Of a stretch of 64,000 nt of DNA, positions 3-14,646 are shown piece after piece. The stretch covers positions 628 to 64,627 of the forward strand of contig JBEPUM010000002.1 of the NCBI GenBank assembly GCA_041691515.1, given 5' to 3'. Positions within the stretch are counted from its first letter, which is position 1; every line of letters starts with the position of its first letter. The position numbers and the translations under genes are program-made. The notes below the pieces were generated by a model that worked only from the letters and a program-made list of their open reading frames with translations, had not been told where the DNA came from and did not search any database. The DNA is from Pseudomonadota bacterium. GTDB taxonomy: Bacteria; Pseudomonadota; Alphaproteobacteria; Rhizobiales; Xanthobacteraceae.

Positions 3-779
3 AAGACCAGCATCGTCAAACCACGCAAGCTCGCAGCATCCAAATCTTCAATATCCAAAACTTCAGTATTCAAACCCGCAGCAACTTCGCTGCGGCTGGC
101 CGGTAAAAAGCCGCCGAAATGCGCTGCCGCGAGACCGAAGGCAAACTCCGCCGCGCGCAAGACGGCTGCCAAGGGATTTCCAGCCAAGACATCACCCACA
201 AAGACATCTCGACCCACAAAGACATCCCGGTCCGTCAAACCGCGTGGTGAAAAAACGCGGGCCGCCGTGGCCGCGCGCAGCAAGACGATTTCTGCAACGA
301 TGCGGCGCGCCGATGAAACGGCTGTTGTTGTCGATGAACAAGATGATGCCGCGAAGGCGGGATTGGACAAACAGCGCGCGCGGCGGACATCGGCTAGCTG
401 CAAGGATGCGCCGAGCCCGCGCATCAAGCGCACCGCGGTCGAGCGTGTCGGCGACCCTCCGCCTGCGACGGGTCCGCTCCTGATTGAGCGCGTGACGCGC
501 GCGATCGAGCGCGAGCTTTCGCTGATCGAGGTCATCGTCGGTGGCCACCATCTCAAGACCCAACAGCGCAGCGAAGCCGAGCGCCGCGCCCGCACACTCG
601 CAAGTCTCGCGCGGACGCTCGGTGAAGTGACGCGGCTGCGCGCCGGTCAACAGAAGGCAAAGCCCGCCGATAACGATGCCGTGCCCCGCGATCTCGACGA
701 GTTCCGGCGCACGCTTTCGCGCCGACTGGAACAACTGGTCGCAGCACCAGCGTCGCCTGCTGCTGGAGAGCATGAGTGA
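3..779 (+). CDS. GTA small terminase-like protein (g1 position) with Lys/Ala/Pro/Ser/Thr-rich N-terminus; 5'-truncated by window
   Basis: Frame of ORF 267..779 stays open back to base 3 (KTSIVKPRKLAASK...); C-terminal DLDEFRRTLSRRLEQL resembles the GTA g1 tail; overlaps terL start. Confidence 0.65.
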   Translation, partial: KTSIVKPRKLAASKSSISKTSVFKPAATSLRLAGKKPPKCAAARPKANSAARKTAAKGFPAKTSPTKTSRPTKTSRSVKPRGEKTRAAVAARSKTISATMRRADETAVVVDEQDDAAKAGLDKQRARRTSASCKDAPSPRIKRTAVERVGDPPPATGPLLIERVTRAIERELSLIEVIVGGHHLKTQQRSEAERRARTLASLARTLGEVTRLRAGQQKAKPADNDAVPRDLDEFRRTLSRRLEQLVAAPASPAAGEHE

Positions 780-2040
780 GGAGGAACTCGGATTTCTTAG
801 CCATCAATGGGATATTTTTGCGCACGACCATCAGCGCCCGCCCGCGCTCGCGCCGAACGGCGCACCGTGGCTGATCTGGCTGATGATTGGCGGCCGTGGC
901 GCGGGCAAGACCCGCGCGGGAGCGGAATGGATTCGCGCACAGGCGCTGGGGCTGCCGCCGTTCGCGGATGCGCCAGTGGAACGCATCGCATTGGTCGGCG
1001 AAACCGAACATGATGCGCGTGAGGTGATGATCGAGGGCGTCTCGGGGCTGCTCGCGGTTCACGCCGCCCATGAGTGGCCGACATGGTCGCCCTCGCGCAA
1101 GCGGCTGGAATGGCCCAACGGGGCGGTTGCGCAGGCGTTTTCGGCCGAGGATCCCGAAAGCCTGCGCGGACCGCAGTTCGGTTGCGCCTGGTCCGACGAG
1201 ATGGCGAAGTGGCGCTATGCGGAGGCCGCGTTCGACATGCTGCAGTTTGGTTTACGGTTGGGATCGCAGCCGCGCCAGCTCATCACGACGACGCCGAAGC
1301 CGACGACGCTGCTGAAACGATTGATGAGCGATCCGGCCAGCATCGTTACGCACGCGCCGACGCGCGCCAATGCCTTCAACCTGGCGCCGACGTTTCTGCA
1401 GAGCGTGATGGCCCGCTACGCCGGAACGCGGCTCGGACGGCAGGAGCTCGACGGCGAGATCATCGAGGATCGTCCGGACGCACTGTGGTCGCGCGGATTG
1501 CTGGAAGCATGTCGTGTGCGCGAGACGCCGCCCTTGCAGAGGATCGTCGTGGCCGTCGATCCTCCGGTCACGTCGAGCAAGCGCGCCGACGCCTGCGGCA
1601 TTGTCGCCGCCGGAATTACAGAGGCCGGGATGGTTTACGTCATCGCGGACGATACGGTGGCTGGCGTTACGCCGGCGATGTGGGCTTCGAAAGCGATCGC
1701 GCTGTGGCGCAAACTCGAGGCCGACGCGCTGGTGGTGGAAGTCAATCAGGGCGGCGAGATGGTGAAGGCTGTCATCGGCGAGGTCGACGCGGCGGTGCCG
1801 GTCATCCCCGTGCGCGCGATGCGTGGAAAATGGCTGCGCGCCGAACCGGTGGCGACGCTTTACGAGCAGGGGCGCGTCAAGCACGCCGGCAGTTTTGCCG
1901 CGCTGGAGGACGAGATGTGCGACTTCGCGGTGTCGGGCCTGTCGTCCGGCCACTCGCCCGACCGGCTCGACGCGCTGGTGTGGGCGGTCGCCTCGCTGGC
2001 ATTGGTCCCGCGCGCCGCGCCGCGGGTGAGCGAATTGTGA
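676..2040 (+). CDS. Terminase large subunit (RcGTA g2 homolog); alternative start ATG 772
   Basis: Walker A GGRGAGKT, LRGPQF/WSDE Walker B region, VVAVDPP and SPDRLDALVWA nuclease motifs. Confidence 0.95.
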   Translation: MPCPAISTSSGARFRADWNNWSQHQRRLLLESMSEEELGFLSHQWDIFAHDHQRPPALAPNGAPWLIWLMIGGRGAGKTRAGAEWIRAQALGLPPFADAPVERIALVGETEHDAREVMIEGVSGLLAVHAAHEWPTWSPSRKRLEWPNGAVAQAFSAEDPESLRGPQFGCAWSDEMAKWRYAEAAFDMLQFGLRLGSQPRQLITTTPKPTTLLKRLMSDPASIVTHAPTRANAFNLAPTFLQSVMARYAGTRLGRQELDGEIIEDRPDALWSRGLLEACRVRETPPLQRIVVAVDPPVTSSKRADACGIVAAGITEAGMVYVIADDTVAGVTPAMWASKAIALWRKLEADALVVEVNQGGEMVKAVIGEVDAAVPVIPVRAMRGKWLRAEPVATLYEQGRVKHAGSFAALEDEMCDFAVSGLSSGHSPDRLDALVWAVASLALVPRAAPRVSEL

Positions 2041-2053
2041 AGGTGGTGAAGCG

Positions 2054-3229
2054 ATGCTGGATCGATTGAGACAAATGTTTGCGCCGCCCGAGACAAAAGC
2101 CAGCCGTACCGCAAAACTGCTGGCGTTCGAAAGCGGCGGTCGTGCGCGATGGACGCCGCGCGATTTTGCGGCGCTGGCGCGCGAGGGCTACCTCGCCAAC
2201 GCCATCGTGCATCGCGCGGTCAGGTTGATCGCGGAAAACGTAGCATCCTGCGCGTATCTGGTGTTCGACGGAGCGCAGGAGCGCGACGCGCATCCGCTGC
2301 AGCTTCTCTTAACGCGGCCGAATGCGCGACAGGATGGCGGCGCCTTTTTCGAAATGCTCGTGTCGCATCTGCTGCTGGCCGGCAATGCCTATATCGAGGC
2401 CGTCGCGCTCGATGGCGCGGTACGCGAGCTCTATGCGCTCCGGCCCGACCGCATGAAGGTGGTGCCTGGCGCCGATGGATGGGCGGAAGCCTATGAATAT
2501 AGCGTCGGCGCGCGCAGCGTGCGCTTCGATCAGGCGGCGTCGAGCGTGCCGCCGATCCTGCACCTGACCTTCTTTCATCCGCTCGACGATCACTATGGCC
2601 TGGCGCCAATCGAACCGGCAGCCGTCGCGATCGACACCCACAACGCCGGGTCGAAATGGAATAAAGCGTTGCTCGACAATGCCGCGCGCCCGTCCGGCGC
2701 GCTGGTCTATTCCGGTCCTGAAGGCGCTGTTCTCTCCGACTCGCAGTTCGACCGGCTCAAGCGCGAACTCACCGACACTTACCAGGGCGCGGCCAACGCC
2801 GGTCGGCCGCTGCTGCTCGAAGGTGGGCTCGACTGGAAGGCGATGTCGCTGACGCCGAAGGACATGGATTTTCTCGAGGCCAAGCATACGGCGGCGCGCG
2901 AGATCGCGTTGGCCTTCGGCGTGCCGCCGATGGTGCTCGGCATTCCCGGCGACAACACCTACGCCAATTTTCAGGAGGCCAACCGCTGCTTCTTCCGCCA
3001 GACGGTGCTGCCGCTGGCATCGCGGATCGGCAATTCGTTCGCGCAGTGGCTTTCGCCGCAATTCGGCGACGGCATCCGCATCGTGGTTGACACCGATCGC
3101 ATCGACGCGCTCGCCGCCGACCGCGCCGCGCTGTGGGAGCGCGTGTCGAGTGCGGCGTTCCTCACATTGAATGAAAAGCGCGAGGCAGTCGGCTACGCGC
3201 CGCTCGAAGGCGGCGACCGGCTAGAGTAA
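2054..3229 (+). CDS. HK97-family phage portal protein (g3)
   Basis: LRPDRMKVVPG, LLLEGGLDWK, AREIALAFGVPP, LTLNEKREAVGY portal motifs. Confidence 0.95.
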   Translation: MLDRLRQMFAPPETKASRTAKLLAFESGGRARWTPRDFAALAREGYLANAIVHRAVRLIAENVASCAYLVFDGAQERDAHPLQLLLTRPNARQDGGAFFEMLVSHLLLAGNAYIEAVALDGAVRELYALRPDRMKVVPGADGWAEAYEYSVGARSVRFDQAASSVPPILHLTFFHPLDDHYGLAPIEPAAVAIDTHNAGSKWNKALLDNAARPSGALVYSGPEGAVLSDSQFDRLKRELTDTYQGAANAGRPLLLEGGLDWKAMSLTPKDMDFLEAKHTAAREIALAFGVPPMVLGIPGDNTYANFQEANRCFFRQTVLPLASRIGNSFAQWLSPQFGDGIRIVVDTDRIDALAADRAALWERVSSAAFLTLNEKREAVGYAPLEGGDRLE

Positions 3230-3233
3230 AACA

Positions 3234-3356
3234 CGTGTCTGGGCGCGACGCATGTGCGGTGCATCGCAGTACCGGGACCCTCACAAAGACGGTTTGGATT
3301 CTTGAACCCCCGGTTCTGCAGCGCAGCGTGACGAACGCCGCACCGGGTCCGGGGCA
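3234..3356. repeat. Degenerate palindromic intergenic repeat (Bradyrhizobium-type cgtgtcccggac...gtccggggcacg family)
   Basis: Imperfect terminal inverted repeats (cgtgtctgggcgcg ... gggtccggggcaag) and internal gcagtaccggga / cccggttctgc pairing; family assignment from memory. Confidence 0.45.
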
Positions 3357-3366
3357 AGGAAAATTG

Positions 3367-3576
3367 ATGTCCGATCTAATCCGCATCTTCGGCGAGCGCG
3401 GTGATCTCGCGCACGTCGCGCTGTTGCTGTGGGCGTGCGCGGCCTCTGCCGCGCTGTGGTTCAGCCTGCGCGAGCTGGCCGCAGCGTCGCGCCGGTTCGA
3501 CGATTTCGTGCGCGAACTGTCGCGCTTCAACCGGCGGCAGCTTCGCAAAAAACATCTCAACAAGGATCAGGACTGA
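3367..3576 (+). CDS. Small membrane-anchored GTA head-region protein (g3.5 position)
   Basis: AAGGA RBS, ATG 3367, hydrophobic segment VALLLWACAASAALWFSL; TGATG coupling to the next gene. Confidence 0.65.
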   Translation: MSDLIRIFGERGDLAHVALLLWACAASAALWFSLRELAAASRRFDDFVRELSRFNRRQLRKKHLNKDQD

Positions 3577-3764
3577 TGGACACACTGCATCGCGTGCTCT
3601 CTTCCTTCAACACCGAAACCAAATCGGCGCGGGATCATCTCACGGTGTTCCGTGAATTCCTGGCGCATCTCGACCAGATCCAGCGCAAGTCGCCCACCGC
3701 GAAGTCGGCGCGCGCAAAACCGGTTTCGCGGCGCAAGCCTGCGAGGCGCGTTCGCAAGGGCTGA
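3576..3764 (+). CDS. Small hypothetical protein with basic C-terminus
   Basis: ATG overlaps upstream stop (TGATG); MDTLHRVLSS...RRKPARRVRKG, 62 aa. Confidence 0.55.
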   Translation: MDTLHRVLSSFNTETKSARDHLTVFREFLAHLDQIQRKSPTAKSARAKPVSRRKPARRVRKG

Positions 3765-3780
3765 TCTCTTTCTTGCTTAT

Positions 3781-3900
3781 CCCTCCCCCTGGAGTGGGGA
3801 GGGTGGCTGGCCACAAATCTTTTTGTGGCCGATCGGGTGGGGTGCGTCACCTGCCAGTGCCCCCCACCCCGACCCTCCCCACCGAAGGCGGGGGGAGGGA
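3781..3900. repeat. RIME/CIR-like palindromic intergenic mosaic element, copy 1
   Basis: CCCTCCCC..GGGGAGGG hairpins at both ends, internal GGGTGGGG/CCCCACCCC pairing. Confidence 0.7.
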
Positions 3901-3963
3901 GGTCCGCACCATCCGCGTCAAGTCCGGCATTCAATTTCACCCCCGCCATTTGCGAGGCCGACC

Positions 3964-4602
3964 ATGCACGCCCCGTTGTCATCCGTGTCGCGTCTCGCCT
4001 TCAGCGGCGACGGCACGGTCGAAGGCTATGCAAGCCTGTTCGGCGAGATCGACCAAGCGCGCGACATGGTGATGCCCGGTGCGTTCGCGCTGACCTTGAA
4101 GCAACGCGGTTTGCGAAAAATCCCGATGCTGTTCCAGCACGATCCGGCCGAGCCTGTCGGCGTCTGGCTTGAGCTGCGCGAGGATTTTCGCGGGCTGTGG
4201 GCGCGGGGTCGGCTGATTCCGGACGTGACGCGTGCGCGTGAATTGCTGGCGCTGGTCGAGGCCGGTGCGGTGGACGGGCTGTCGATCGGCTATCGCACCG
4301 TGCGCGGCCAGATCGAGCCGCGTTCGCGCGTGCGCAAGCTCTACCAGGTCGACTTATGGGAAATTTCCATCGTTACGTTCCCGCTGCTGGCGGGAGCGCG
4401 TGTCCGCGCGGTGAAGGAGGCGCCGGCCCCACGGCGCCTGTCGCCGCTGCGGATACAGGCCGAGCGTGACTGGCGGAGCATGACGGAGGCCGCGGATGAA
4501 CCGGCGCCGCAGCTCCGCCCGCGCTCGGCGGTTTTTTCGGCGTCATTGCGGGGACGGGAAGGGCGGCGCGCAGCGCTGCGCGCGCGGAGATGGTGGGAGT
4601 GA
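3964..4602 (+). CDS. HK97-family prohead protease (g4)
   Basis: VEGYASLFG, MLFQHDPAEPVG, DGLSIGY, LWEISIVTFP motifs; ATG 3964 after GAGG. Confidence 0.93.
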   Translation: MHAPLSSVSRLAFSGDGTVEGYASLFGEIDQARDMVMPGAFALTLKQRGLRKIPMLFQHDPAEPVGVWLELREDFRGLWARGRLIPDVTRARELLALVEAGAVDGLSIGYRTVRGQIEPRSRVRKLYQVDLWEISIVTFPLLAGARVRAVKEAPAPRRLSPLRIQAERDWRSMTEAADEPAPQLRPRSAVFSASLRGREGRRAALRARRWWE

Positions 4603-4606
4603 ACCA

Positions 4607-5035
4607 ATGACCGACCATGCCGGTGCATTTGAAGCTGCGCAGCTTGCGCGCTGGATGCGGCCCGATGCCGACAGATGGATACGCCCGGATGCGGCGCTCT
4701 TCCTGAAACCTGGCTCCGATCCGCGCGATGTCTTTACGGCGTTGGCCCGGAAATACAGTCCGGATCAGCCACGCGTGCCGGCGGGCAGTGGGCGGGAAAG
4801 CGGTCAATGGACAGGCGGCGACGCCTCCGGCCCCCAGGGAGCTAATGAAAACACGTTGATGCAGGATATACTTGCCACAGCATCGAATCTTCAGCTTATC
4901 GGTTGCCCGGCGGACTATCGAGAATGCGTCAAACTTTGCTATCCTTTGTTGGAGCGATTTTCAGCTCCTGGAAGCGACAGGAATTACTGGGATTTCCAAA
5001 AGTGCCTGAATGTTTGTCTCAAACGAGGGCTTTGA
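4607..5035 (+). CDS. Putative polymorphic effector A: RPDA/QPRVPAG leader plus Cys-rich C-terminal mini-domain
   Basis: ATG 4607 lies 4 nt after the protease stop; leader is paralogous to 7266 ORF; C-term GCPADYRECVKLC...QKCLNVCL. Confidence 0.7.
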   Translation: MTDHAGAFEAAQLARWMRPDADRWIRPDAALFLKPGSDPRDVFTALARKYSPDQPRVPAGSGRESGQWTGGDASGPQGANENTLMQDILATASNLQLIGCPADYRECVKLCYPLLERFSAPGSDRNYWDFQKCLNVCLKRGL

Positions 5036-5036
5036 T

Positions 5037-5279
5037 ATGGATATCGACGCGGCCCGGCATACTGTCCGCCAGTCATTTCAAATCGCGCGCGAACTCCAGA
5101 GCCTGCTTCCGTTTCTGAAAGAACGCTGCGATACGAACGAATACCGGCAATATGCCGTCGATATCGCCAAGGCGGTCGATGCCGTTAGCGTGGCTCTGCT
5201 CAACAAAGCGATCAAGGATTATCCCGAGCTTAAGGACGAGATCGAGAGCCGCATCGCAACTTACGGGCGCTACTTTTGA
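5037..5279 (+). CDS. Putative cognate immunity protein for effector A (80 aa, helical)
   Basis: ATG 1 nt after effector A stop, GAGGG RBS; function inferred only from position. Confidence 0.55.
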   Translation: MDIDAARHTVRQSFQIARELQSLLPFLKERCDTNEYRQYAVDIAKAVDAVSVALLNKAIKDYPELKDEIESRIATYGRYF

Positions 5280-5291
5280 TCGGCCAGAACA

Positions 5292-5579
5292 TCACCGCTT
5301 AAACGCCAGCGCCGCCGAAAGGCCCACGATGACGCCGGCGCAGATCGCAGCACCTCCGGCGGCCATGCCCCAGTTCAGGAAATAGAGAGCCATCGACAAG
5401 AACGTTTTGTCGGTGCTGCCGCCGAGCAGCACGAACGATGTTGCGAACGCCACCAGCAGCACAGCGCAAACGGCCGTCCAGAACCAGGCGGGCCCGCGCC
5501 GCGAAGGCTCCATCGCAACCCAAGCGCCGCCGGCGGCGGCGATGACCAGAACGACCCAGACAAAAATCGCAAGACGCAT
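5292..5579 (-). CDS. Small integral membrane protein (about 3 TM), antisense insert
   Basis: 95 aa with three hydrophobic segments; fills the gap before the capsid gene. Confidence 0.6.
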   Translation of the reverse strand: MRLAIFVWVVLVIAAAGGAWVAMEPSRRGPAWFWTAVCAVLLVAFATSFVLLGGSTDKTFLSMALYFLNWGMAAGGAAICAGVIVGLSAALAFKR

Positions 5580-5697
5580 CGGTTGACCCCGGCAGGGATG
5601 TCACGTCGCCGATCTGTAGCCCATGACGCGCGCCGGTTGAAGAGGCCGGCATCCGTCTCGCCATGTTTTGAGACCCATCATCACCAAGGAGAACCAG

Positions 5698-6951
5698 ATG
5701 GATTTTGACATCACCGACACCGCGCCGGAGCACAAATCCGGCATCGCCGCGTGGGGCGATTACGACGATTTTCGCGCGACCTTCGAGGAGTTCAAGTCGG
5801 CCAACGACGAACGGCTGGCGCGGCTTGAGAAGAAGCGCGGCGACGTGCTGCTGGAGGAAAAGGTCGATCGCATCAATGCTGCGCTGGATGCCCAGCACAG
5901 GCGCATGGACGACCTCGCCCTGAAGCACGCCCGGCCGGTGCTGGAAGGCCGCGGCCGCATCGTCAGGGACGCCGCGTCTCGCGAGCACAAGAGCGCGTTC
6001 GACGCTTATGTGAGGGGCGGCGAGGCGGGCAGCTTGCGCGATCTGGAGAGCAAGGCGATGTCGGTCGGGTCCAATCCGGACGGCGGCTATCTGGTGCCGG
6101 TCGAACTCGAGCACGAGATCGGCGAACGTCTGGCCGCGATCTCGCCGATCCGCGCGATCTCATCGGTGCGCACCATCTCCGGCAACGTCTACAAGAAGCC
6201 GTTCATGACCGCTGGCCCCGCCACCGGCTGGGTCGGCGAAACCGACTCGCGGACGCAGACCACCTCGCCGACGCTGGACGCCCTGAGTTTTCCGGCGATG
6301 GAGCTTTACGCCATGCCGGCGGCGACCGCGACCTTGCTCGATGACAGCGCCGTCAACATCGACGAGTGGATCGCGCAGGAGGTCGAACTTACCTTCGCCG
6401 TGCAAGAGGGCGCCGCCTTCGTCAACGGCGACGGCACCAACAAGCCGAAGGGCTTTCTGCAATCCACCACGGTGGCCAACGGTTCGTGGGCCTGGGGCAG
6501 CCTCGGTTACATCGCGAGTGGTGCTGCCGGCGCGTTCGCCTCGACCAATCCATCCGACGCGCTGGTCGATCTGATCTACGGGCTGAAGGCGGGTTATCGC
6601 CAGAACGGCATGTTCGTGATGAACCGCAAGACGCAGGCATCGATCCGCAAGTTCAAGGACTCGGGCGGCGCGTATCTGTGGCAGCCGCCGTCGCTGGCGG
6701 GCGGCCGCGCGTCGCTGATGACGTTCCCGCTGATCGAGGCTGAGGATATGCCGGACGTCGCCGCGAATTCACTGTCGATCGCATTCGGCGATTTCCGCCG
6801 CGGCTACCTGGTGGTGGACCGCGCGGGCGTTCGCGTGCTGCGCGATCCTTACTCCGCAAAACCCTACGTTCTGTTTTACACCACCAAGCGGGTCGGCGGC
6901 GGCGTGCAGGATTTCGACGCCATCAAGCTGATGAAGTTCGCGGCGAGCTGA
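5698..6951 (+). CDS. HK97-fold major capsid protein (g5)
   Basis: AAGGAG RBS and ATG 5698; DGGYLVP, NGDGTNKPKGFL, AFGDF, RDPYSAKPYVLFYTTKRVGG. Confidence 0.97.
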   Translation: MDFDITDTAPEHKSGIAAWGDYDDFRATFEEFKSANDERLARLEKKRGDVLLEEKVDRINAALDAQHRRMDDLALKHARPVLEGRGRIVRDAASREHKSAFDAYVRGGEAGSLRDLESKAMSVGSNPDGGYLVPVELEHEIGERLAAISPIRAISSVRTISGNVYKKPFMTAGPATGWVGETDSRTQTTSPTLDALSFPAMELYAMPAATATLLDDSAVNIDEWIAQEVELTFAVQEGAAFVNGDGTNKPKGFLQSTTVANGSWAWGSLGYIASGAAGAFASTNPSDALVDLIYGLKAGYRQNGMFVMNRKTQASIRKFKDSGGAYLWQPPSLAGGRASLMTFPLIEAEDMPDVAANSLSIAFGDFRRGYLVVDRAGVRVLRDPYSAKPYVLFYTTKRVGGGVQDFDAIKLMKFAAS

Positions 6952-7007
6952 GCGCTTTCTCGATCTGAAGACGTCGCGGTGCGCCCCATCGACGCGCCGT
7001 AGCGATG

Positions 7008-7190
7008 TCCCTCCCTCCGCTCTCGCGGTGGGGAGGGTCGGCCGAGCCGAGGGCCAATGCGTTGCCCGCAGGCGGAGGCCGGGGTGAGGGGATTTAAGGC
7101 ACGCCCCCAACCGACACATCGCTCGCGGCGCTCACGATGCGCCACCCTCCCCACCGTGCGTAGCAAGAGCTGCGCGGAGGGCAGGGATAA
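7008..7190. repeat. RIME/CIR-like palindromic intergenic element, copy 2
   Basis: ccctccc..gggagggt hairpin, ggggtgagggg / ccccaacc, accctccccacc..gggcaggga; same architecture as 3781 and 12499. Confidence 0.6.
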
Positions 7191-7265
7191 GAAAAGGCGC
7201 GCCCGATCGGCGCGCCGTGCGTTTTCAGCGAAATTTTCCAATCACATCGAAACGGACCATCTCGC

Positions 7266-8357
7266 ATGAATACGCGCGAGAACGCCTGGCTGCGCCATCA
7301 GCAGCAACGATGGCTGCGGCCGGACGCGTATCGCTGGATTCGTCCGGACGCGGCGCGGTTTTTCAAGCCGGGCGCCGATGTGACGGAGGCCTATCCGGCG
7401 CTCGCGACCAGTCCGAACCAACGGCTGCGCGAGCGGCGGATCGCCGAAGCCATCGCGCACGATCAGTCCATCATCGCCGAACTGAGAGCCGAACTCGTCT
7501 CGGTGAAGGCAGCGATCGCGTGGCGAAAGGCGGCCCGCGAACGTGAGGAGAAATACAGCCCGAGCCAGCCGCGAGTGCCGGCGGGCAATGGCCGCGACAG
7601 CGGCCGCTGGACCGACGGCAGCAGCAGCGGGCGACCGCGCGTCATCATCGACACCACCAATCTCGATGCGAATGCGGAGGGCGATGGCGGCGGCGTTGGA
7701 AGCGGTATCTCGGCATCGATCAGCGCGTTCGACATCGGCGACGTCAGCAGCGAAGTCGGCTCGCTCGGCTTGTTTGACATCAAACCGCGGGAAAATTCGG
7801 TTCAAGGCGTGCAGCTTGCAGGCGATCCGCCGGACAAGTTGCCGCCGATCGTCATAGCGCCGGAACAGCCGCCGGAAATTCCACCACCCAAGAGGGGCAT
7901 TGCAGAGCGGTCGATCGATTTTATCCGCCGTGCCGCTGAGTACGTTCGGATTGTTGGCCCGCTGTCGCATGCTGCTGGCGCACTTTTTGAGGCGCTAGAG
8001 CAAGCCGAAGAACTCCGAGGAGAGACGGCAGCAATCAAGTCGGCGAACGACCCGCCGCTCACGCTTAAGGAACTGCAAGCCCGCGCGCGATTGCCCAGCG
8101 AACCCGGTTATCAGACGCATCACATTGTTGGTCAGTTCAGGCAGAACAGGCTGCAATTCGGCGATGGTTTGATCTACAGTCGTGAGAACGAAGTGCGAAT
8201 TCCAGTCGTGAAGCACATGGATATCAGTCGATTCTATTCGACGCCCAATAAATACTACAATGGCTTGTCGCCCAGAGACTATCTTCGCGGCAAAAGCTGG
8301 GATGAACAGATGCGCGAGGGACTGAAAATCCTGCGAGATAACGGGGTGCTCTTATGA
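7266..8357 (+). CDS. Putative polymorphic toxin B: RPDA/QPRVPAG leader, coiled coil, low-complexity linker, C-terminal HNH/AHH-like nuclease
   Basis: Leader shared with 4607 ORF; C-terminal GYQTHHIV...SRENEVRIPVVKH (HH..N..H beta-beta-alpha-Me pattern); ATGA overlap with next gene. Confidence 0.75.
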   Translation: MNTRENAWLRHQQQRWLRPDAYRWIRPDAARFFKPGADVTEAYPALATSPNQRLRERRIAEAIAHDQSIIAELRAELVSVKAAIAWRKAAREREEKYSPSQPRVPAGNGRDSGRWTDGSSSGRPRVIIDTTNLDANAEGDGGGVGSGISASISAFDIGDVSSEVGSLGLFDIKPRENSVQGVQLAGDPPDKLPPIVIAPEQPPEIPPPKRGIAERSIDFIRRAAEYVRIVGPLSHAAGALFEALEQAEELRGETAAIKSANDPPLTLKELQARARLPSEPGYQTHHIVGQFRQNRLQFGDGLIYSRENEVRIPVVKHMDISRFYSTPNKYYNGLSPRDYLRGKSWDEQMREGLKILRDNGVLL

Positions 8358-8731
8358 TGACAATGACGCAACCGGATGAGGCGCGTATAAGCCCCCTTGT
8401 CGCGCGTTTTGTCGAGGTATGTCTGGAGCAGTATCAAATCCTCTACAGTTTCGGCAGCACCTCCAGATATAATCGTCTGTACAAGGAAATGGAGCGCGCG
8501 ACGACCGAGCTCCAGCAGATGCCGGGCGATCAGCGGCGAGCCCTGTTGCCGCTGCTGTCGCATTCCAATCCGCAGGTTCGATTGCAGGCGTCACACTCGC
8601 TGCTGGTGCTGTTCCCTGTTGCAGCCCGCCAATGTCTGGAGGAAATTCGTGACTCCGGCACGGCGCCTGTCTACGCATACGCAGCGAGTGCCTTGCGACG
8701 GCTCGACGAGGGAAGCTACGTTCCGAGTTGA
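8354..8731 (+). CDS. Putative immunity protein, HEAT-repeat/DUF2019-like
   Basis: GDQRRALLPLLSHSNPQVRLQAS HEAT-like motif; translationally coupled to toxin B. Confidence 0.7.
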   Translation: MMTMTQPDEARISPLVARFVEVCLEQYQILYSFGSTSRYNRLYKEMERATTELQQMPGDQRRALLPLLSHSNPQVRLQASHSLLVLFPVAARQCLEEIRDSGTAPVYAYAASALRRLDEGSYVPS

Positions 8732-8833
8732 CAGTTTGCGCCTTGCGCCGAGAGAATATCTTCTGACAAAGCGAGCGGCGTGACGCTATCGGGTCGAGAC
8801 GGCGTTTCCTCAAAATCGGGGCCGGTAGAGATC

Positions 8834-9072
8834 ATGCCCAGGTTCAGAACAGAAATCTGCATCAAGCCGAAGGACATTCAAATGATCCTGACGTGGCACA
8901 ATGAAGCGGAATATTGGCTGGACCGGGCGTTTCTCGCTACCTTGGACGACTTTCCCGAATCCCATCGCAAAACGATCCGGATCATCTCGAATGGTATTAT
9001 ATCGATAACGATCAGTATGAGCGACTGCTCGATTTCAGAAAGGAGCTGCGCGAAAAACGCGGCGATCGATAG
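8834..9072 (+). pseudogene. Frameshifted small ORF (about 79 aa if repaired), possible orphan immunity gene
   Basis: One extra A in AAAA at 8969-8972 joins MPRFRTEIC...SHRK to NDPDHLEWYYIDNDQYERLLDFRKELREKRGDR* (TAG 9070-9072) and removes the overlap with the convergent gene. Confidence 0.4.
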
Positions 9073-9106
9073 AGGCGCCGATCCGGTTGAGATTTGGCGG
9101 CGTCGC

Positions 9107-9868
9107 TCAAATCCCGGAGCCCCAGCTCCTCGCCGTTTTCAAAATCCAGTCGCGGTAGAGCGCGAGCGGCGTAACGCCGGTGAGGCCGCCGCAGCCCGAG
9201 GCGTTGTTCGCGCCGGTTGACCAACTGACCACACCGATAACGACGCTGCCGCCGCTTGAATCGAGAAACGCCGGCGCGCCGGAATCGCCGGTGCAGGCGC
9301 CGAGGCCCGCGCGCGCGTTGCTGGTTGCGGGATCGACCAAGCGGATCTGCAATGTGCCGGGCCGTCCGGTGACGCTCAGGCTCGCGGCGCGCGCCACGCC
9401 GCCGCTGCGGCCATCGCCGCGCACGGCGACGCCCATGCCAACGACGGTGAGACGCTGGCCGACAATCACCGGCATCAGCGCGCCACCGAGTGTTGCCGGA
9501 GCCGCGGCGACGGGGGCCGCGAGTTGCAACAGCGCCACGTCGGCGGTGGCGCGGTGCGCCAGCAGACTTTGCATCTGGAATTGCGGATGCGCAGCGGCGC
9601 GCTTGATATCGAGCAGGCGTGGCGGCTGGCTTTTGTAATCCACCATCTTGTAGCTGGTGCCCGGTGCGACGCAGTGCGCGGCGGTCAGGATGATGTTGCG
9701 CGCGATCAGCGTGCCGGTGCAGGACGTGCCGTGTGAGCCGACGATGGTGACAATCGCGCCGGCGACCGCAGGCGAAGGCGCACTGCCGCCGCCGACCATG
9801 GCGAAGGAAGGCTGCGCGAGAGCCGGCAACAGCGCGGCGGTGAGGATCATGAGCGTTCGCTGAATCAT
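9107..9868 (-). CDS. Secreted trypsin-like (S1) serine protease
   Basis: Signal peptide, MVGG mature start, CTGTLI, LTAAHC, DVAL, CTGDSGAP catalytic motifs. Confidence 0.9.
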   Translation of the reverse strand: MIQRTLMILTAALLPALAQPSFAMVGGGSAPSPAVAGAIVTIVGSHGTSCTGTLIARNIILTAAHCVAPGTSYKMVDYKSQPPRLLDIKRAAAHPQFQMQSLLAHRATADVALLQLAAPVAAAPATLGGALMPVIVGQRLTVVGMGVAVRGDGRSGGVARAASLSVTGRPGTLQIRLVDPATSNARAGLGACTGDSGAPAFLDSSGGSVVIGVVSWSTGANNASGCGGLTGVTPLALYRDWILKTARSWGSGI

Positions 9869-9944
9869 CCGGCGATGTGAGCCATCGCACCGCGCGTCTG
9901 TCAACACCTCGACTTTACCTGGACACTCACAACGAGGACATCCG

Positions 9945-10514
9945 ATGCCGTCAATACTTTTGACCGGGCCTGCGATCGAGCCGTGGTCGGTCGCGGAGGC
10001 CAAGAGCTATCTGCGTGCGGAGAATGATGACGATGACACCGTGATCGCGTCGCTGATTTCGGCGGCGCGCAATCAGGTCGAGGCGCTGACGCGCTGCGCC
10101 CTGATCGCGCAGACCTGGCGGTTCGTGCGCGACCAGTGGCCGCCGGATGGGCGGATCAAACTGGGCAGGGGTCCGCTGCGGTCGCTGACGGCGGCACGGG
10201 TTTATGATTCCGCGAGCAATGCCAGCGCCGTCGATGCAGGAATGTTCGTCCTCGACAAGGCGGGAGGCGTGATCGCGTCGCCGTCCTGGGCGCTGCCGGT
10301 GCCGGGCCGCGCGAGCGCCGGTATCGAACTCGACGTCGAGATTGGTTTCGGAACTGCCGCGACCGACGTGCCGGATGTGTTGCGCCATGCGATCCGGACG
10401 CTGGTGGCGCACTGGTACGAGAACCGCGGCCTGATCGCGATCGGCCAGACGGTTGCGATGATGCCGGCCAGCGTCAACGCCATGATCGCAAGCTACCGCG
10501 TGCGCCGGCTCTGA
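9945..10514 (+). CDS. Head-tail connector/adaptor (g6)
   Basis: AEAKSYLR, LIAQTWR, LVAHWYENRG motifs; GAGGA RBS. Confidence 0.92.
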   Translation: MPSILLTGPAIEPWSVAEAKSYLRAENDDDDTVIASLISAARNQVEALTRCALIAQTWRFVRDQWPPDGRIKLGRGPLRSLTAARVYDSASNASAVDAGMFVLDKAGGVIASPSWALPVPGRASAGIELDVEIGFGTAATDVPDVLRHAIRTLVAHWYENRGLIAIGQTVAMMPASVNAMIASYRVRRL

Positions 10515-10543
10515 AACGCGCGCTTTTCTCGTGAGGACATGAC

Positions 10544-10954
10544 ATGACCAGCGCCAATTCAGCGCTTCGCGCCGCCGTGCACGATGCGCTCGCCGCCGAC
10601 ACGGGCCTTCAGGATGCGCTCGGCGGCAACAGGGTTTATGACGAGCCGCCGCGCGGCGACCTGTTGCCTTATGTCAGCGTTGGCGAGGCGCGCATCACGG
10701 ATACGTCGGTCGATGACGGGCCGACCCAGGAGCATCAGATCACGCTGCATGCGCGCTCGCGCCAGGGTGGGCAGGGCGAAGCGCATGTGATCGCCGGGGC
10801 CGTGTTGCAGGCGCTCGACGATGCGCCGCTGATGCTCGCCGGATACCGCCTGGTCAATTTCCGCTTCGCGGTCGCGGACATCCGGCGCGAGTCCGATGGC
10901 CGCATCTATCACGCACAGGTGCGCTTCCGCGCCGTGACCGAACCGACAACCTAA
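10544..10954 (+). CDS. Tail completion/terminator protein, DUF3168 (g8)
   Basis: RVYDEPP, PYVSVGE, VRFRAVTE; synteny. Confidence 0.88.
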   Translation: MTSANSALRAAVHDALAADTGLQDALGGNRVYDEPPRGDLLPYVSVGEARITDTSVDDGPTQEHQITLHARSRQGGQGEAHVIAGAVLQALDDAPLMLAGYRLVNFRFAVADIRRESDGRIYHAQVRFRAVTEPTT

Positions 10955-10968
10955 ATCAAGGAGGCGTC

Positions 10969-11376
10969 ATGGGCGCACAAAAGGGCAAAGACCTGTTGCT
11001 GAAGATGAGCGATGGCACGAGTTTCGTCACCGTGGCTGGCTTGCGCAGCCGCAGGATCGCATTCAACGCCGAGATCGTCGACATCACCAATGCGGAATCG
11101 ACCGATCGCTGGCGCGAGTTGCTGGCAGGCGCGGGCGTCAAGCGCGCATCGCTATCGGGCCGCGGCCTGTTCAAGGACGCTGCGTCCGATGCGCTGGTGC
11201 GGCAGGCGTTCTTCGACGGCGCCATCAGCGATTGTCAGGTCGTCGTGCCCGACTTCGGCACCATCGAAGGCCTGTTCCAGATCTCGAGTCTCGAATTTTC
11301 CGGCGAACACAACGGCGAGGTGACGTTCGACCTCGCGCTGGAGTCCGCCGGTGCGCTGACGTTTACCGCGATGTGA
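10969..11376 (+). CDS. Major tail tube protein, TP901-1 family (g9)
   Basis: MGAQKGKDLLLK, WRELLAGAGV, LESAGALTF. Confidence 0.93.
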   Translation: MGAQKGKDLLLKMSDGTSFVTVAGLRSRRIAFNAEIVDITNAESTDRWRELLAGAGVKRASLSGRGLFKDAASDALVRQAFFDGAISDCQVVVPDFGTIEGLFQISSLEFSGEHNGEVTFDLALESAGALTFTAM

Positions 11377-11384
11377 GGATAGCG

Positions 11385-11705
11385 ATGCCCAACAAACATC
11401 GCGGCGAGATCGCCGCAGAGCTTGGCGGGCGTCAGCGGACGCTGGTGCTGACGCTCGGCGCGCTGGCGGAGCTTGAGGCCGCGTTCGGCGCCGACGATCT
11501 GATCGCGCTAGCCGAACGTTTCGGCTCGGGGCGGCCGTCGGCGCGCGATCTGATCCGCATCGTCGGAGCGGGGCTGCGCGGCGCAGGCGAGACGGTGACG
11601 GACGATGAGGTCGCTTCCATGACGGCTGACGGTGGTGCGGCCGGCTTTGTCAAAATCGCGGCCGAGCTGATCGCTGCGACCTTCGACGACGGCGCTCCCC
11701 GATGA
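11385..11705 (+). CDS. Tail assembly chaperone, GTA gp10 family
   Basis: NKHRGE, LTLGALAELE motifs; ATG 11385 after GAGGA. Confidence 0.88.
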   Translation: MPNKHRGEIAAELGGRQRTLVLTLGALAELEAAFGADDLIALAERFGSGRPSARDLIRIVGAGLRGAGETVTDDEVASMTADGGAAGFVKIAAELIAATFDDGAPR

Positions 11706-11914
11706 AGCCGTTTCCGTGGACGGAGGCGATGGGATTTGGCTTCGGTGTCTTGCGTCTTGCGCCGGACGTGTTCTGGCGGATGACGCCGCGCGAACTGGCA
11801 CAGGCGATCCATGCGGTGCGCGGGCCGATTGCCGCGCCGATCGATCGCGGTTCGCTGGACCAATTGATGATCCGGTTTCCGGACAGGCAGGCGGGAGTGA
11901 GCGATGACGGATAG
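11702..11914 (+). CDS. Small tail assembly chaperone (g10.1 / rcc01693-like)
   Basis: FWRMTPRELA, LMIRFPD; ATGA overlap. Confidence 0.85.
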   Translation: MKPFPWTEAMGFGFGVLRLAPDVFWRMTPRELAQAIHAVRGPIAAPIDRGSLDQLMIRFPDRQAGVSDDG

Positions 11915-12491
11915 CAGCGATCTTCTGGGCACATCCAGCACGCTGGATAGTCTCACGGCCAAAACCCAGGCGCTGACGATCAGCGCGGGCGGCTTTGCGC
12001 GCGCGATGACGCAGGCGTTCTCGACCTCGATCACCGGTGGAAAGCAACTCGACGACGTGCTCAAAACGCTGGTGTTGCGAGTTTCGAGCCTCGCAGTGAC
12101 CGCGGCGTTCAAGCCGCTGGCGAGCGGGCTGACCTCCGGCATTTCCAACCTGTTCTCGGGCCTCACCGGCGCGGGTGCATCGACGGCGGTTGCGGCGCAG
12201 GCGAATGCGCTCGGCGCGATCAAGCCGTTCGCGAGCGGCGGCGTGATCGGCACGCCGACTTATTTCCCCATGATCGGTGGCGGTGTCGGTCTTGCCGGCG
12301 AGGCCGGCCCAGAGGCGATCATGCCGCTGGTGCGCGGTCCCGACGGGCGGCTCGGCGTCTCCGGCAGCGGCGGTGGCAACAGCATCACGGTGCAGATCGC
12401 TACTCCAGATATCGACAGTTTTCGCCGCTCGGAGAGTTACGTCACCGGCCAGATCGCCCGCGCGGTCGCGCGGGGACAGCGGAGCTTGTGA
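11904..12491 (+). CDS. Short tail tape measure protein (g11)
   Basis: PFASGGV, GEAGPEAIMPL, FRRSE..IARAVARGQRSL. Confidence 0.9.
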   Translation: MTDSSDLLGTSSTLDSLTAKTQALTISAGGFARAMTQAFSTSITGGKQLDDVLKTLVLRVSSLAVTAAFKPLASGLTSGISNLFSGLTGAGASTAVAAQANALGAIKPFASGGVIGTPTYFPMIGGGVGLAGEAGPEAIMPLVRGPDGRLGVSGSGGGNSITVQIATPDIDSFRRSESYVTGQIARAVARGQRSL

Positions 12492-12498
12492 TTGTTTT

Positions 12499-12645
12499 AC
12501 CCTCCCCTGGAGGGGGAGGGTCGCTCGCCGATCATGCGCAGCATGATGAGGCGAACGGGGTGGGGTGAAGAGCTGTGCTTGAAGCGCCCACCCCACCCCG
12601 ATGGTCGCTTCACTCCCATCGACCTTCCCCCTCCAGGGGAGGGTG
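12499..12645. repeat. RIME/CIR-like palindromic intergenic element, copy 3
   Basis: accctcccctggagggggagggt ... ggggtggggtg / caccccacccc ... accttccccctccaggggagggt. Confidence 0.75.
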
Positions 12646-12658
12646 AAGAGAGGTTGTC

Positions 12659-13300
12659 ATGACCAGCTTTCACGAAATCCTGTTTCCGCTCGATGTCGCG
12701 CTGAAGAGTGCGGGCGGGCCTGAACGGCGCACCGACATCGTCAGCTTCGGCTCCGGCCGCGAGGCGCGTAACGCGCGCTGGGCGCAATCGCGGCGGCGTT
12801 ACGACGCCGGTTACGGTGTCAAGACGCTCGATGCGTTACAGACCGTTGTCGCATTCTTCGAGGAGCGGCGCGGCCAGCTTTATGGGTTTCGCTGGCGCGA
12901 CCGGCTGGATTGTTGCTCGGCGATCACAGGCACAGCGACCTCGTCGCTGGATCAGGTCATCGGCGTCGGCGACGGCGTGACCGCCTCGTTTCAACTGATG
13001 AAGACTTATGGCAGTTCGTTCGCGCCGTATGTGCGTGTGATCGCCAAGCCGGTGGAGGGCAGTGTTCGTGTCGCTGTCGGCAGCAGCGAAGTTGCGGCAG
13101 GTTCGGCGTTCACCTGCGACGTCACCAGCGGCCTTGTGACGTTTCTGTCCGGCCATATTCCGCCCGCCGGCGCTGCCGTCACGGCGGGTTTCATGTTCGA
13201 TGTCCCTGTGCGCTTCGATACCGACTATCTTGAAGTGGATCTCGCAACTTTCGCCGCCGGCGCCATTCCGAAAATTCCGCTGGTGGAGATCCGGCCATGA
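12659..13300 (+). CDS. Distal tail protein, DUF2460/TIGR02217 (g12)
   Basis: FHEILFP, GGPERRTDIV, FFEERRGQLYGFRWRD, FDVPVRFDTD. Confidence 0.93.
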   Translation: MTSFHEILFPLDVALKSAGGPERRTDIVSFGSGREARNARWAQSRRRYDAGYGVKTLDALQTVVAFFEERRGQLYGFRWRDRLDCCSAITGTATSSLDQVIGVGDGVTASFQLMKTYGSSFAPYVRVIAKPVEGSVRVAVGSSEVAAGSAFTCDVTSGLVTFLSGHIPPAGAAVTAGFMFDVPVRFDTDYLEVDLATFAAGAIPKIPLVEIRP

Positions 13301-14187
13301 GGAGCATCCCATCGGCGCTCCAGGCGAAACTCGATTCCGGCGCGACAACTTTGGCGCGCTGCTGGATCGTAACGCGGCGCGATGGTGTCGTGCTTGGCTT
13401 CACCGATCACGACAGCGATCTGGTTGTTGGCGGCACCACATGCCGTGCCGCGACCGGCTTTACCGCGTCGGAAGCCACCAGCCGGTTCGATCTGTCGGTC
13501 GATGGCGCGGAAATCTCCGGCGCGTTCTCCGATGACTCCCTGACCGAGGCCGATCTCGCCGCCGGACGATACGATGCGGCCGAGATCGCAACCTGGCTCG
13601 TGGACTGGAGCGATGTCTCGCTAAAAATCCTGACCGCGCGGGGTACGCTGGGCGAAGTCCGGCGCGAAGGACAGGCTTTCACGGCGGAGTTGCGCGGCCT
13701 CGCGGATGCGCTGGCGCAGGACAGCGGGCGTCCTTATACAGCCCGCTGCGGCGCCGACCTCGGTGACGGCAAATGCCGGATCGATCTGACCGATGCCGCG
13801 TATCGCGGCAGCGGCGCTGTCACGACGATCGAAGGCACGTCGATCATCGGAGCCTCCGGTCTTGATGGCTTCGCCGATGGCTGGTTCAGCGCCGGGCGGC
13901 TGATATGGACAAGCGGTGCCAATGCCGGTCTCGCGATTGAGGTGAAAGAGCATCGCGTGTCCTCGGGCGAGGTGCGGATGTCGCTGTGGCAGGCGATGCC
14001 CGAGCCGATCGCGGCCGACGATGCCTTCATCGTCACCGCCGGTTGCGACAAGAATTTTGCGACCTGCCGCGATCGTTTCGCCAACACCGATAACTTTCGC
14101 GGCTTTCCGCAGATCCCCGGCAACGATTTTGTCGTGAGTTATCCCGTGCCCGGTGCGCCGGACAACAGCGGCAGCAAAGTGCTGTGA
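13297..14187 (+). CDS. Baseplate hub protein, DUF2163/TIGR02218 (g13)
   Basis: RRDGVVLGFTDHD, AGCDK..TCRDRFAN..NFRGFPQIPG. Confidence 0.93.
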   Translation: MRSIPSALQAKLDSGATTLARCWIVTRRDGVVLGFTDHDSDLVVGGTTCRAATGFTASEATSRFDLSVDGAEISGAFSDDSLTEADLAAGRYDAAEIATWLVDWSDVSLKILTARGTLGEVRREGQAFTAELRGLADALAQDSGRPYTARCGADLGDGKCRIDLTDAAYRGSGAVTTIEGTSIIGASGLDGFADGWFSAGRLIWTSGANAGLAIEVKEHRVSSGEVRMSLWQAMPEPIAADDAFIVTAGCDKNFATCRDRFANTDNFRGFPQIPGNDFVVSYPVPGAPDNSGSKVL

Positions 14188-14199
14188 AGGAGTTGCGCG

Positions 14200-14646
14200 G
14201 TGATGGTTGCAAATCTAACCCGTGAAAGCATCGTCGCGGAAGCGCGCGCGTGGATCGGTACGCGCTATAGCCATCAGGCCTCGCTCAAGGGCATCGGTTG
14301 CGACTGCCTTGGCCTGGTGCGCGGCGTCTGGCGAAATTGCGTCGGTGACGAGCCGGAAACGCCGCCGCCCTATGCGCCCGACTGGGCCGAAGCAGGAGGC
14401 GGCGAGACGCTGGCCGCGGCGGCGCTGCGTCATCTCATTCCCGTCGCGCTTACGGACTTCAAGCCGGGCGACGTACTGCTGTTTCGCTGGCGTGATGGGT
14501 TCGTCGCCAAGCATGTCGCCATCGCTGCCAGCGACCGCACCATGATTCATGCCCACGACGGCGCGGCTGTCTGCGAGATCGTCATCGCTCCATGGTGGCG
14601 GCGGCGTCTCGCCTACGCGTTTCGCTTTCCCGGAGTGATCGACTGA
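14200..14646 (+). CDS. NlpC/P60 cell-wall peptidase (g14)
   Basis: ARAWIGTRY, GCDCLGLVRGVW, KHVAI, MIHA. Confidence 0.92.
   Translation: MMVANLTRESIVAEARAWIGTRYSHQASLKGIGCDCLGLVRGVWRNCVGDEPETPPPYAPDWAEAGGGETLAAAALRHLIPVALTDFKPGDVLLFRWRDGFVAKHVAIAASDRTMIHAHDGAAVCEIVIAPWWRRRLAYAFRFPGVID

Follow-up and report, generated by a model that had tools for sequence, protein, structure and literature searches.

Paired candidate toxin/immunity cassettes at the head genes of an RcGTA-type gene transfer agent suggest a protein cargo beside DNA

Why bacteria keep gene transfer agents (GTAs), which kill the cell that produces them, is a long-standing question, and a locus from a member of the Xanthobacteraceae adds a more particular one: what are two genes with the same N-terminus doing on either side of a GTA capsid gene? 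The window analysed here is a stretch of 64,000 nucleotides (nt) of contig JBEPUM010000002.1 (assembly GCA_041691515.1), whose DNA comes from a freshwater-sediment metagenome. It carries a collinear cluster of the type of the Rhodobacter capsulatus GTA (RcGTA) on its plus strand, at bases 676-18497; the remainder is ordinary chromosome. The original prediction, made from the sequence of the window, was that two leader-toxin/immunity cassettes flank the major capsid gene and are delivered by the GTA capsid. Our analysis favours this reading, to which we give a probability of about 0.6: both cassettes would be loaded into RcGTA-type heads and delivered together with the DNA. The genes in question are the following (aa, amino acids; ORF, open reading frame; the tip is the C-terminal domain).

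4607..5035, plus strand: putative toxin A (ORF A), 142 aa, with the short form of the leader, at the protease-capsid junction; block 1 at 4649-4720, block 2 at 4751-4813, QLIG boundary at about 4883-4900, tip at 4841-5032
5037..5279, plus strand: candidate immunity protein for tip A, 80 aa, helical; its ATG lies 1 nt after the stop codon of A (5033-5035)
5698..6951, plus strand: major capsid protein, HK97 fold with an N-terminal delta-like region (PF05065, E 1.7e-88)
7266..8357, plus strand: putative toxin B (ORF B), 363 aa, with the long form of the leader, at the capsid-adaptor junction; block 1 at 7308-7379, helical insert at about 7413-7550, block 2 at 7551-7613, Gly-rich linker, block 3 at 7713-7823, tip at 7881-8354 with an HNH-like GYxxHHIV..N..P...H at 8106-8216
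8354..8731, plus strand: DUF2019 protein, HEAT-like, 125 aa, candidate immunity protein for tip B (PF09450, E 1.4e-24, 86.5 bits against a cut-off of 23.3, profile positions 3-105 of 105); its start overlaps the stop of B as ATGA

BLASTP aligns A with B at E 9e-21, with identity limited to residues 1-75 of A and 1-122 of B, and B carries a helical insert of 47 residues between blocks 1 and 2. The original prediction had recognized this common leader around the capsid gene with all coordinates correct, had placed blocks 1 and 2 exactly, and had noticed a later QL[IA]G, which proves to be the end of a third common block in both proteins. Its statement that the leader is conserved at the protein level holds as well: the DNA differs at many positions and the block 2 proteins are near-identical. 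Beyond the leader the C-termini are unrelated and AT-richer, as it had said, the GC content being 0.50-0.55 in tips and partner genes (4800-5250 and 7950-8550), down from about 0.65-0.69, and the coupling of each ORF to a small partner was described correctly. ORF A starts 4 nt after the end of the protease gene and ORF B 315 nt after the capsid stop. The genome from which the window is taken has two copies of the leader, both in the window. Pfam searches of A and B at E values up to 0.1 returned no domain of any kind, hence no MuF domain, in agreement with what had been noted from the sequence, and no signal peptide or known secretion domain was found in the leader proteins. Both cassettes recur, near-identical, in an independent cave metagenome (17 and 11 differences over 1.7 and 2.4 kb); metagenome joints that skip the post-capsid cassette were disregarded, their sides being shorter than 30 nt. 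Separately, a 256-nt contig of a rhizosphere metatranscriptome matches part of the DUF2019 gene (positions 8444-8699) without a difference; so short a match does not suffice for a claim of expression.

A large family of polymorphic toxins has this leader at its N-terminus. With residues 1-125 of B as the query we obtained 252 proteins of 199-636 aa, and with A 171 proteins of 78-249 aa; the named hosts are Bradyrhizobium, Rhodopseudomonas, Nitrobacter, Afipia, Pseudolabrys and unnamed Xanthobacteraceae. In the alignments the leader comes in short and long forms. Block 1 consists of three RW.RPDA-like repeats, block 2 reads K-Y-x-P-x-Q-P-R-V-P-x-G-..-G-G-Q-W, and block 3, which follows a Gly-rich linker, reads ..LFxIKP......GVQLAG; beyond it the sequences are unrelated. 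Invariant residues are R15, D20, R26, P35, K96, Y97, Q101-P102-R103, P105, G107, G113 and W115. When 150 members were compared with Pfam, 48 matched RNAse_A_bac (PF18431), nine MafB19-deam (PF14437) and one Deam_C, and the rest had no match; all of these matches are toxin tips, and no MuF domain was found among the 150. Other tips include HNH-like and Cys-rich ones. A constant N-terminus followed by diverse C-terminal toxin domains is characteristic of polymorphic toxins, and a search with the leader profile, for which the original prediction had foreseen many different toxin domains, indeed gave hundreds of proteins of this kind.

The tips of the window belong to two such families. That of tip A comprises 55 proteins and is a domain of about 60 aa with an invariant twin CX3C, the four Cys being invariant in alignment A6; AlphaFold2 (AF2) models it as three helices with a pLDDT of about 88-90. 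The family of tip B has 28 members, which keep GYxxHHIV...N...P...H throughout, and in an alignment of 21 homologues G-Y-x-x-H-H-I-V, N and P-x-x-x-H are invariant. In the AF2 model of toxin B the tip (pLDDT >90) holds a beta-beta-alpha unit (strands 282-286 and 309-313, helix 314-325), and residues 102-212 are disordered; blocks 2 and 3 are modelled as disordered stretches between folded parts, as fits linear motifs. Foldseek gave weak matches of tip B (E about 1) to colicin E7/E9, pyocin DNases and the HNH domain of Cas9; against the PDB no match at E <= 0.001 was found with models A and B, and the tip B profile returned nothing meaningful from PDB sequences. We regard tip B as a candidate HNH-like nuclease, as its motif and model suggest, with no confirmation from Pfam, PDB sequences or Foldseek. 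Re-ranking of model B with VIA-align produced merely generic helical matches (Z <4), and single-linkage BLAST clustering of the tips was not used for the family counts, since it over-merged them through the common linker and block 3.

The gene downstream changes with the tip, as in polymorphic toxin loci, and the expectation that each C-terminus would be followed by its own small gene was borne out. A B-type tip is followed by a DUF2019 gene in the window and in all seven further cases (L005/L006, two in L029, three in L033; L, G and P numbers are our own handles). An A-type tip is followed by an 80-81-aa homologue of the product of 5037-5279 in both further cases (the post-capsid slot of L032 and the post-terminase slot of L033; 33-35% identity), and a deaminase tip by Imm1. 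Displaced and orphan cassettes, another trait of such loci, were also encountered: L033 contains an orphan tip (a fragment at 13488-13682 followed by a DUF2019 gene) and three further DUF2019 genes. Extra cassettes often follow duplicated 3' fragments of the capsid gene (L007, at 9424-9852, before a deaminase toxin; G121; G393), of the portal gene (L024, L029) or, in the case of L029, a protease fragment. These upstream head-gene fragments are a recombination footprint typical of polymorphic toxin loci. We therefore describe A with 5037-5279, and B with the DUF2019 gene, as two putative polymorphic toxin/immunity cassettes, the toxicity of whose tips we infer from sequence.

What ties these cassettes to the GTA is their position. 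Among the sampled genomes of the family the leader profile matched in 169 of 401, representing 41 of 62 genera, often with 2-13 clustered copies per genome. For the 80 leader-positive genomes with listed leader coordinates we located the GTA-type capsid gene and compared the positions by hand. A leader lies at most 6 kb from the GTA capsid gene, on the same contig and strand, in 65 of the 80; in 43 the leader begins downstream of the capsid gene, 79-532 bp from its stop. The exceptions are mostly fragmented assemblies or matches to block 2 only. Cassettes occupy all four head junctions, namely terminase-portal, portal-protease, protease-capsid and capsid-adaptor. The enrichment of leader genes in GTA head modules that the original prediction called for is thus found across the family.

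A more direct connection with the head comes from proteins in which block 2 joins a tip to a head component. In a wider sample, of 400 genomes from the class and 150 from the order, no block 1 turned up beyond the family; block 2 did, and forms an in-frame junction there. The fusions are as follows.

L013: Phage_portal, block 2 and a Colicin_E5 RNase
L011: portal, block 2 and a tip lacking a named family
L023 and L024, one genus of the window's own family: portal, block 2 and a tip; in L024 a single ORF at 8197-10068, with a tip of a family known from stand-alone leaders as well (P0005)
L010/L022: Peptidase_S78, block 2 and a tip or extension
L015: a short protein, block 2 and Colicin_E5

The fusion genes sit in clusters with the gene order of a GTA head, and L020 and L021 also have homologues of g12-g15. 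Given that the tip family of the L024 fusion is also found on stand-alone leaders, the same tips move between the free leader and head proteins. The portal and protease carriers are certainly built into the procapsid or enclosed by it. Because the leader motif joins toxins to the portal or the maturation protease elsewhere, GTA particles probably carry protein toxins besides DNA.

Block 2 reaches still further. A profile of 36 positions matched 5337 representative proteins at E <= 0.001 among 1.84 billion, and the best matches are proteins of 700-4000 aa with 2-11 copies of the motif, in which it separates ADP-ribosyltransferase, Zeta-toxin, topoisomerase IB, ChaB and other domains. Two of these polyproteins, in phage contigs, are encoded between portal/MuF genes and the genes for an S78_2 protease and the capsid. 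S78_2 protease proteins, among them a fusion of Zeta-toxin and protease, likewise have the motif close to their N-terminus. A tblastn search of a phage collection with the 36-aa block 2 peptide gave no match, the query being too short. The distribution of block 2 (K[YF]xPxQPRxPxG..GG[QR]W) suggests a possible general role as a signal, either for entry into HK97-type heads or for processing inside them, and with the portal and protease fusions and the polyvalent effectors of phages the context of head-linked toxins is wider than in the case originally described. In two phage contigs (L054, 8001-17817; L055, 6571-13573) nearly all genes between MuF/portal and capsid carry block 2; their products include proteins of 972-1588 aa that combine ADP-ribosyltransferase with Zeta-toxin, ChaB or Acb1, and a Zeta-toxin and S78_2 fusion is also present. 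A shortened block 2, KYSPDQPR-D[ED][RH]GRW, without the VPAGxx insert, was seen in some A-type toxins (P0125, P0126, P0127 and P0135) and in a phage polyprotein (L054, 14326), which suggests that the junction motif has two sub-forms.

How could the leader act? The idea that it is a head-loading signal of polymorphic toxins is supported by the fusions, the diversity of the tips and the linkage to head genes, and on the ground of comparative genomics the predicted loading into the head is well supported. We envisage that the leader would serve as a signal for head loading and processing, bringing the toxin into the assembling procapsid. On the most economical reading block 2 would mark proteins for residence or processing inside HK97-type procapsids, either as a docking element that binds shell or scaffold or as a cut site of the S78 prohead protease, a cut after its invariant Lys being one possibility. 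Where, in this family, the toxin is not part of a portal or protease fusion, block 1 would provide the docking. The tip would be kept in the filled head and then expelled with the DNA into the recipient, the cognate immunity protein would shield the producer and kin carrying the same cassette, and tips with their immunity genes would be swapped by recombination at the leader and at the 3' ends of head genes. In HK97, gp5 is cut between Lys and Ser. The window capsid reads ..ESK-AMSVGSNPDGGYL.., as compared to ..K-YSP..GNPDGGQW.. in block 2, and by analogy with gp5 the resemblance at the Lys is suggestive only. A co-fold of capsid and leader (alignments A8 and A2) scored 0.07, against a mark of 0.32, and counts neither way on binding.

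The idea of capsid-packaged polymorphic toxins is not a new principle; new here are the carrier and the host element. Such toxins were proposed in 2012 for MuF fusions of temperate phages and are still functionally unexplained ('MuF-SS', Zhang et al., 2012, PMC3482391; Jamet et al., 2017, PMC5576092; Bxa and Apk2, PMC11699363). For the GTA cassettes, as for MuF toxins, the prediction is that the protein enters the capsid and reaches the recipient along with the DNA. Unlike MuF toxins, A and B lack an N-terminal MuF domain (PF04233, PF06152 or relatives); the GTA carrier is a short leader, about 55-120 aa composed of linear motifs, or the portal or prohead protease itself, and the host element is a chromosomal RcGTA-type agent rather than a replicating prophage, with several head-gene junctions in use. 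Polyvalent proteins, in which RNase (PBECR) and 2H domains are fused to portal or MuF (Iyer et al., 2017, PMC5512222), are likewise head-module effectors, and block 2 separates domains of polyvalent proteins, although a description of this junction motif was not found in that paper. They hold two to fifteen effector domains per polypeptide, whereas A and B have a single tip each, with a cognate immunity gene, and the GTA toxins are polymorphic between strains. With CdiA-CT/CdiI and Rhs toxins the GTA toxins have in common the tips (the PF18431 CdiA-CT RNase A, MafB19 deaminase and colicin E5), a sharp demarcation motif before the tip, arrays of orphan tips and immunity genes, and Imm1-type immunity; delivery, however, would depend on a head-gene-linked leader and not on type V or type VI secretion or the Rhs machinery. 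Short terminal peptides, namely the capsid targeting sequence of T4 and the cargo-loading peptides of encapsulins, bring otherwise unrelated proteins into a shell with the HK97 fold or a related one; the T4 targeting sequence is removed by the prohead protease. The GTA leader would work in a like manner, with no sequence relationship, and is longer and tripartite. In the literature that we searched we found no description that links GTAs to polymorphic toxins, immunity proteins or portal-toxin fusions. What appears new is the non-MuF leader, the use of portal and protease as carriers with immunity genes, the association with a GTA and the common junction motif.

Could the cassettes simply be passengers? 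Ordinary toxin/immunity or addiction modules might have settled in permissive GTA junctions and use the promoter of the cluster, leaving the cell by another route or not at all, with a leader that has some other export or regulatory role. Head junctions of relatives also hold a GIY-YIG gene, DDE transposases, a glutaminase and an S1-P1 nuclease (L005, 1350-1637 and 5774-8496; L007, 3813-4631 and 6369-7532), which makes them general insertion hot spots, and a conserved trypsin-like gene is found in the junctions as well; some leader or block 2 genes moreover lie outside GTA clusters, including L025-L027 and L030. We nonetheless consider this explanation unlikely, as a hot spot leaves unexplained both the in-frame fusions of the same motif and tip families to portal and protease and the recurrence of the motif in effector polyproteins of phage head modules. 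The linkage in 65 of the 80 genomes, and A and B lacking a recognizable signal peptide or secretion domain, also speak against it. To be taken as equally unlikely is that the proteins are packaged and injected, yet help the transferred DNA to survive by countering defences or remodelling the recipient instead of killing non-kin, in which case the partner genes would merely protect the producer during assembly. This would suit the presence of block 2 in polyvalent effectors of phage head modules, which have been read as early-acting and DNA-delivered (PMC5512222), and what MuF toxins do biologically is not known either (PMC11699363). A repertoire of RNase A-like CdiA-CT, MafB19 deaminase, colicin E5 and HNH-like tips, together with orphan tips and extra immunity genes, is however a signature of antagonism between strains, and there is no GTA replication cycle that could profit. 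Very improbable, in our view, is an action in the GTA-producing cell itself, such as an HNH nuclease that aids the terminase, breakdown of host nucleic acids, or a colicin-like release of the toxins at lysis. In HK97-like phages packaging is indeed assisted by HNH proteins encoded next to terminase and portal genes, the motif of tip B is HNH-like, and GTA release requires lysis of the producer. But the tips, which may be RNases, deaminases, nucleases or a Cys-rich mini-domain and come with a cognate inhibitor in each case, are interchangeable, so that a fixed packaging role does not fit; nor do the proteins, only 140-470 aa long, have colicin-type receptor-binding and translocation domains.

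Several points nevertheless weigh against packaging and delivery as we propose them. The head-closure gene g7 (PF05521) was found neither at its usual place nor elsewhere in the genome, which is 87% complete, and the gap between g6 and the tail-completion gene measures 29 nt (window 10514-10544). PF05521 is present in relatives (L005, 12897-13211; L007; L032), and in congeners solely beside prophage capsids, for which reason the loss of g7 looks genus-wide. Given a GTA that, in this genus, has no Pfam-detectable PF05521 at the usual place, particles from this genome may be impaired. It is accordingly conceivable, though rather improbable, that the family-wide system is real and that the cassettes of the window sit in a GTA which perhaps no longer delivers them. 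The frames of the remaining GTA genes and of both cassettes are open and intact, however, the capsid is 88-93% identical among congeners, the cave metagenome holds a near-identical copy of both cassettes, and, besides the incompleteness of the genome, a non-homologous stopper protein is possible. To our knowledge, GTA activity has not been documented in this family. Furthermore, DNA delivery by RcGTA is to the periplasm and depends on the competence machinery of the recipient; tips that are nucleases, RNases or deaminases, being enzymes that act in the cytoplasm, would require another step to get across the inner membrane. Comparing the leader profile by hhalign with the protease and portal of the window and with the capsid alignment gave nothing (probabilities 0.1-0.4%), so that the leader is not a detectable duplicate of a segment of these head proteins. 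A minority of leader or block 2 genes lies away from GTAs (for example G261, G069, G152 and one copy in G005), and the genome counts are descriptive and not a statistical test, since related genomes are not independent samples and the counts overstate the statistical weight. Finally, packaging, cleavage, ejection and delivery, toxicity and the effect on recipients of GTA DNA are all steps that we infer.

If toxins with matching immunity are indeed delivered by GTAs, these could act in kin discrimination or competition in addition to gene exchange. A broader generalization, which we advance only tentatively, is that the RcGTA-type particles of many Alphaproteobacteria carry a dual cargo, random host DNA and strain-specific toxins, the latter by means of a universal junction motif on a leader, portal or protease, with the immunity of the recipient deciding its survival. 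Gene transfer would then be restricted to kin, or GTAs would be weapons, and this would offer a selective reason for their long-term maintenance. As a general head signal block 2 would be useful for annotating virion-delivered effectors and, if its role is confirmed, could serve to load proteins into phage-like particles.

The cluster that hosts the cassettes has the gene order expected of an RcGTA-type element, being collinear from the terminase to the GTA_TIM/Rcc01698 gene with the exception of PF05521. By Pfam, the order around the capsid is terminase, portal, S78 prohead protease and then the PF05065 capsid, with the first three upstream of cassette A.

676..2040, plus strand: large terminase (Terminase_6N, E 6e-28; Terminase_6C, E 6e-22)
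2054..3229, plus strand: portal protein, here without toxin fusion (PF04860, E 2e-88)
3964..4602, plus strand: HK97-type prohead serine protease S78 (PF04586, E 4.7e-39)

The capsid start at the ATG at 5698 agrees with the starts of its homologues, and capsid orthologues across the family are 63-93% identical. The 3' genes of the cluster encode a head-tail connector, a tail completion protein, the tail tube and a GTA-gp10-type chaperone, followed by further tail genes with DUF2460, phiJL001-Gp84/BR0599 hub and NlpC/P60 matches (Pfam), and a 1301-aa protein carries GTA_TIM, Phage-tail_3 and Rcc01698_C domains. Four further features lie around the cassettes.

7196..7216, plus strand: GC-rich hairpin followed by a T-run, terminator-like, with 8 GC pairs, 50 nt upstream of ORF B
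5292..5579, minus strand: strongly hydrophobic ORF of 95 aa with no Pfam match, convergent to cassette A and upstream of the capsid gene
8836-9220, plus strand: low-GC (about 0.52) ORF with no Pfam match, directly 3' of the DUF2019 gene
9107-10003, minus strand: trypsin-like serine protease (PF00089) that probably has a signal peptide, in the interval from the post-capsid cassette to the g6 adaptor

The hairpin, found by pattern matching only, might act as an attenuator separating toxin B from the capsid gene. Whether the hydrophobic ORF is part of the toxin system is uncertain, and the low-GC ORF may be what is left of a displaced cassette or else an orphan immunity gene. Homologues of the PF00089 gene stand in the same place in L005, L007, L023, L024, L028, L029 and L032, and are duplicated in some of these; it is a conserved non-GTA gene within the GTA cluster that adjoins the toxin slot.

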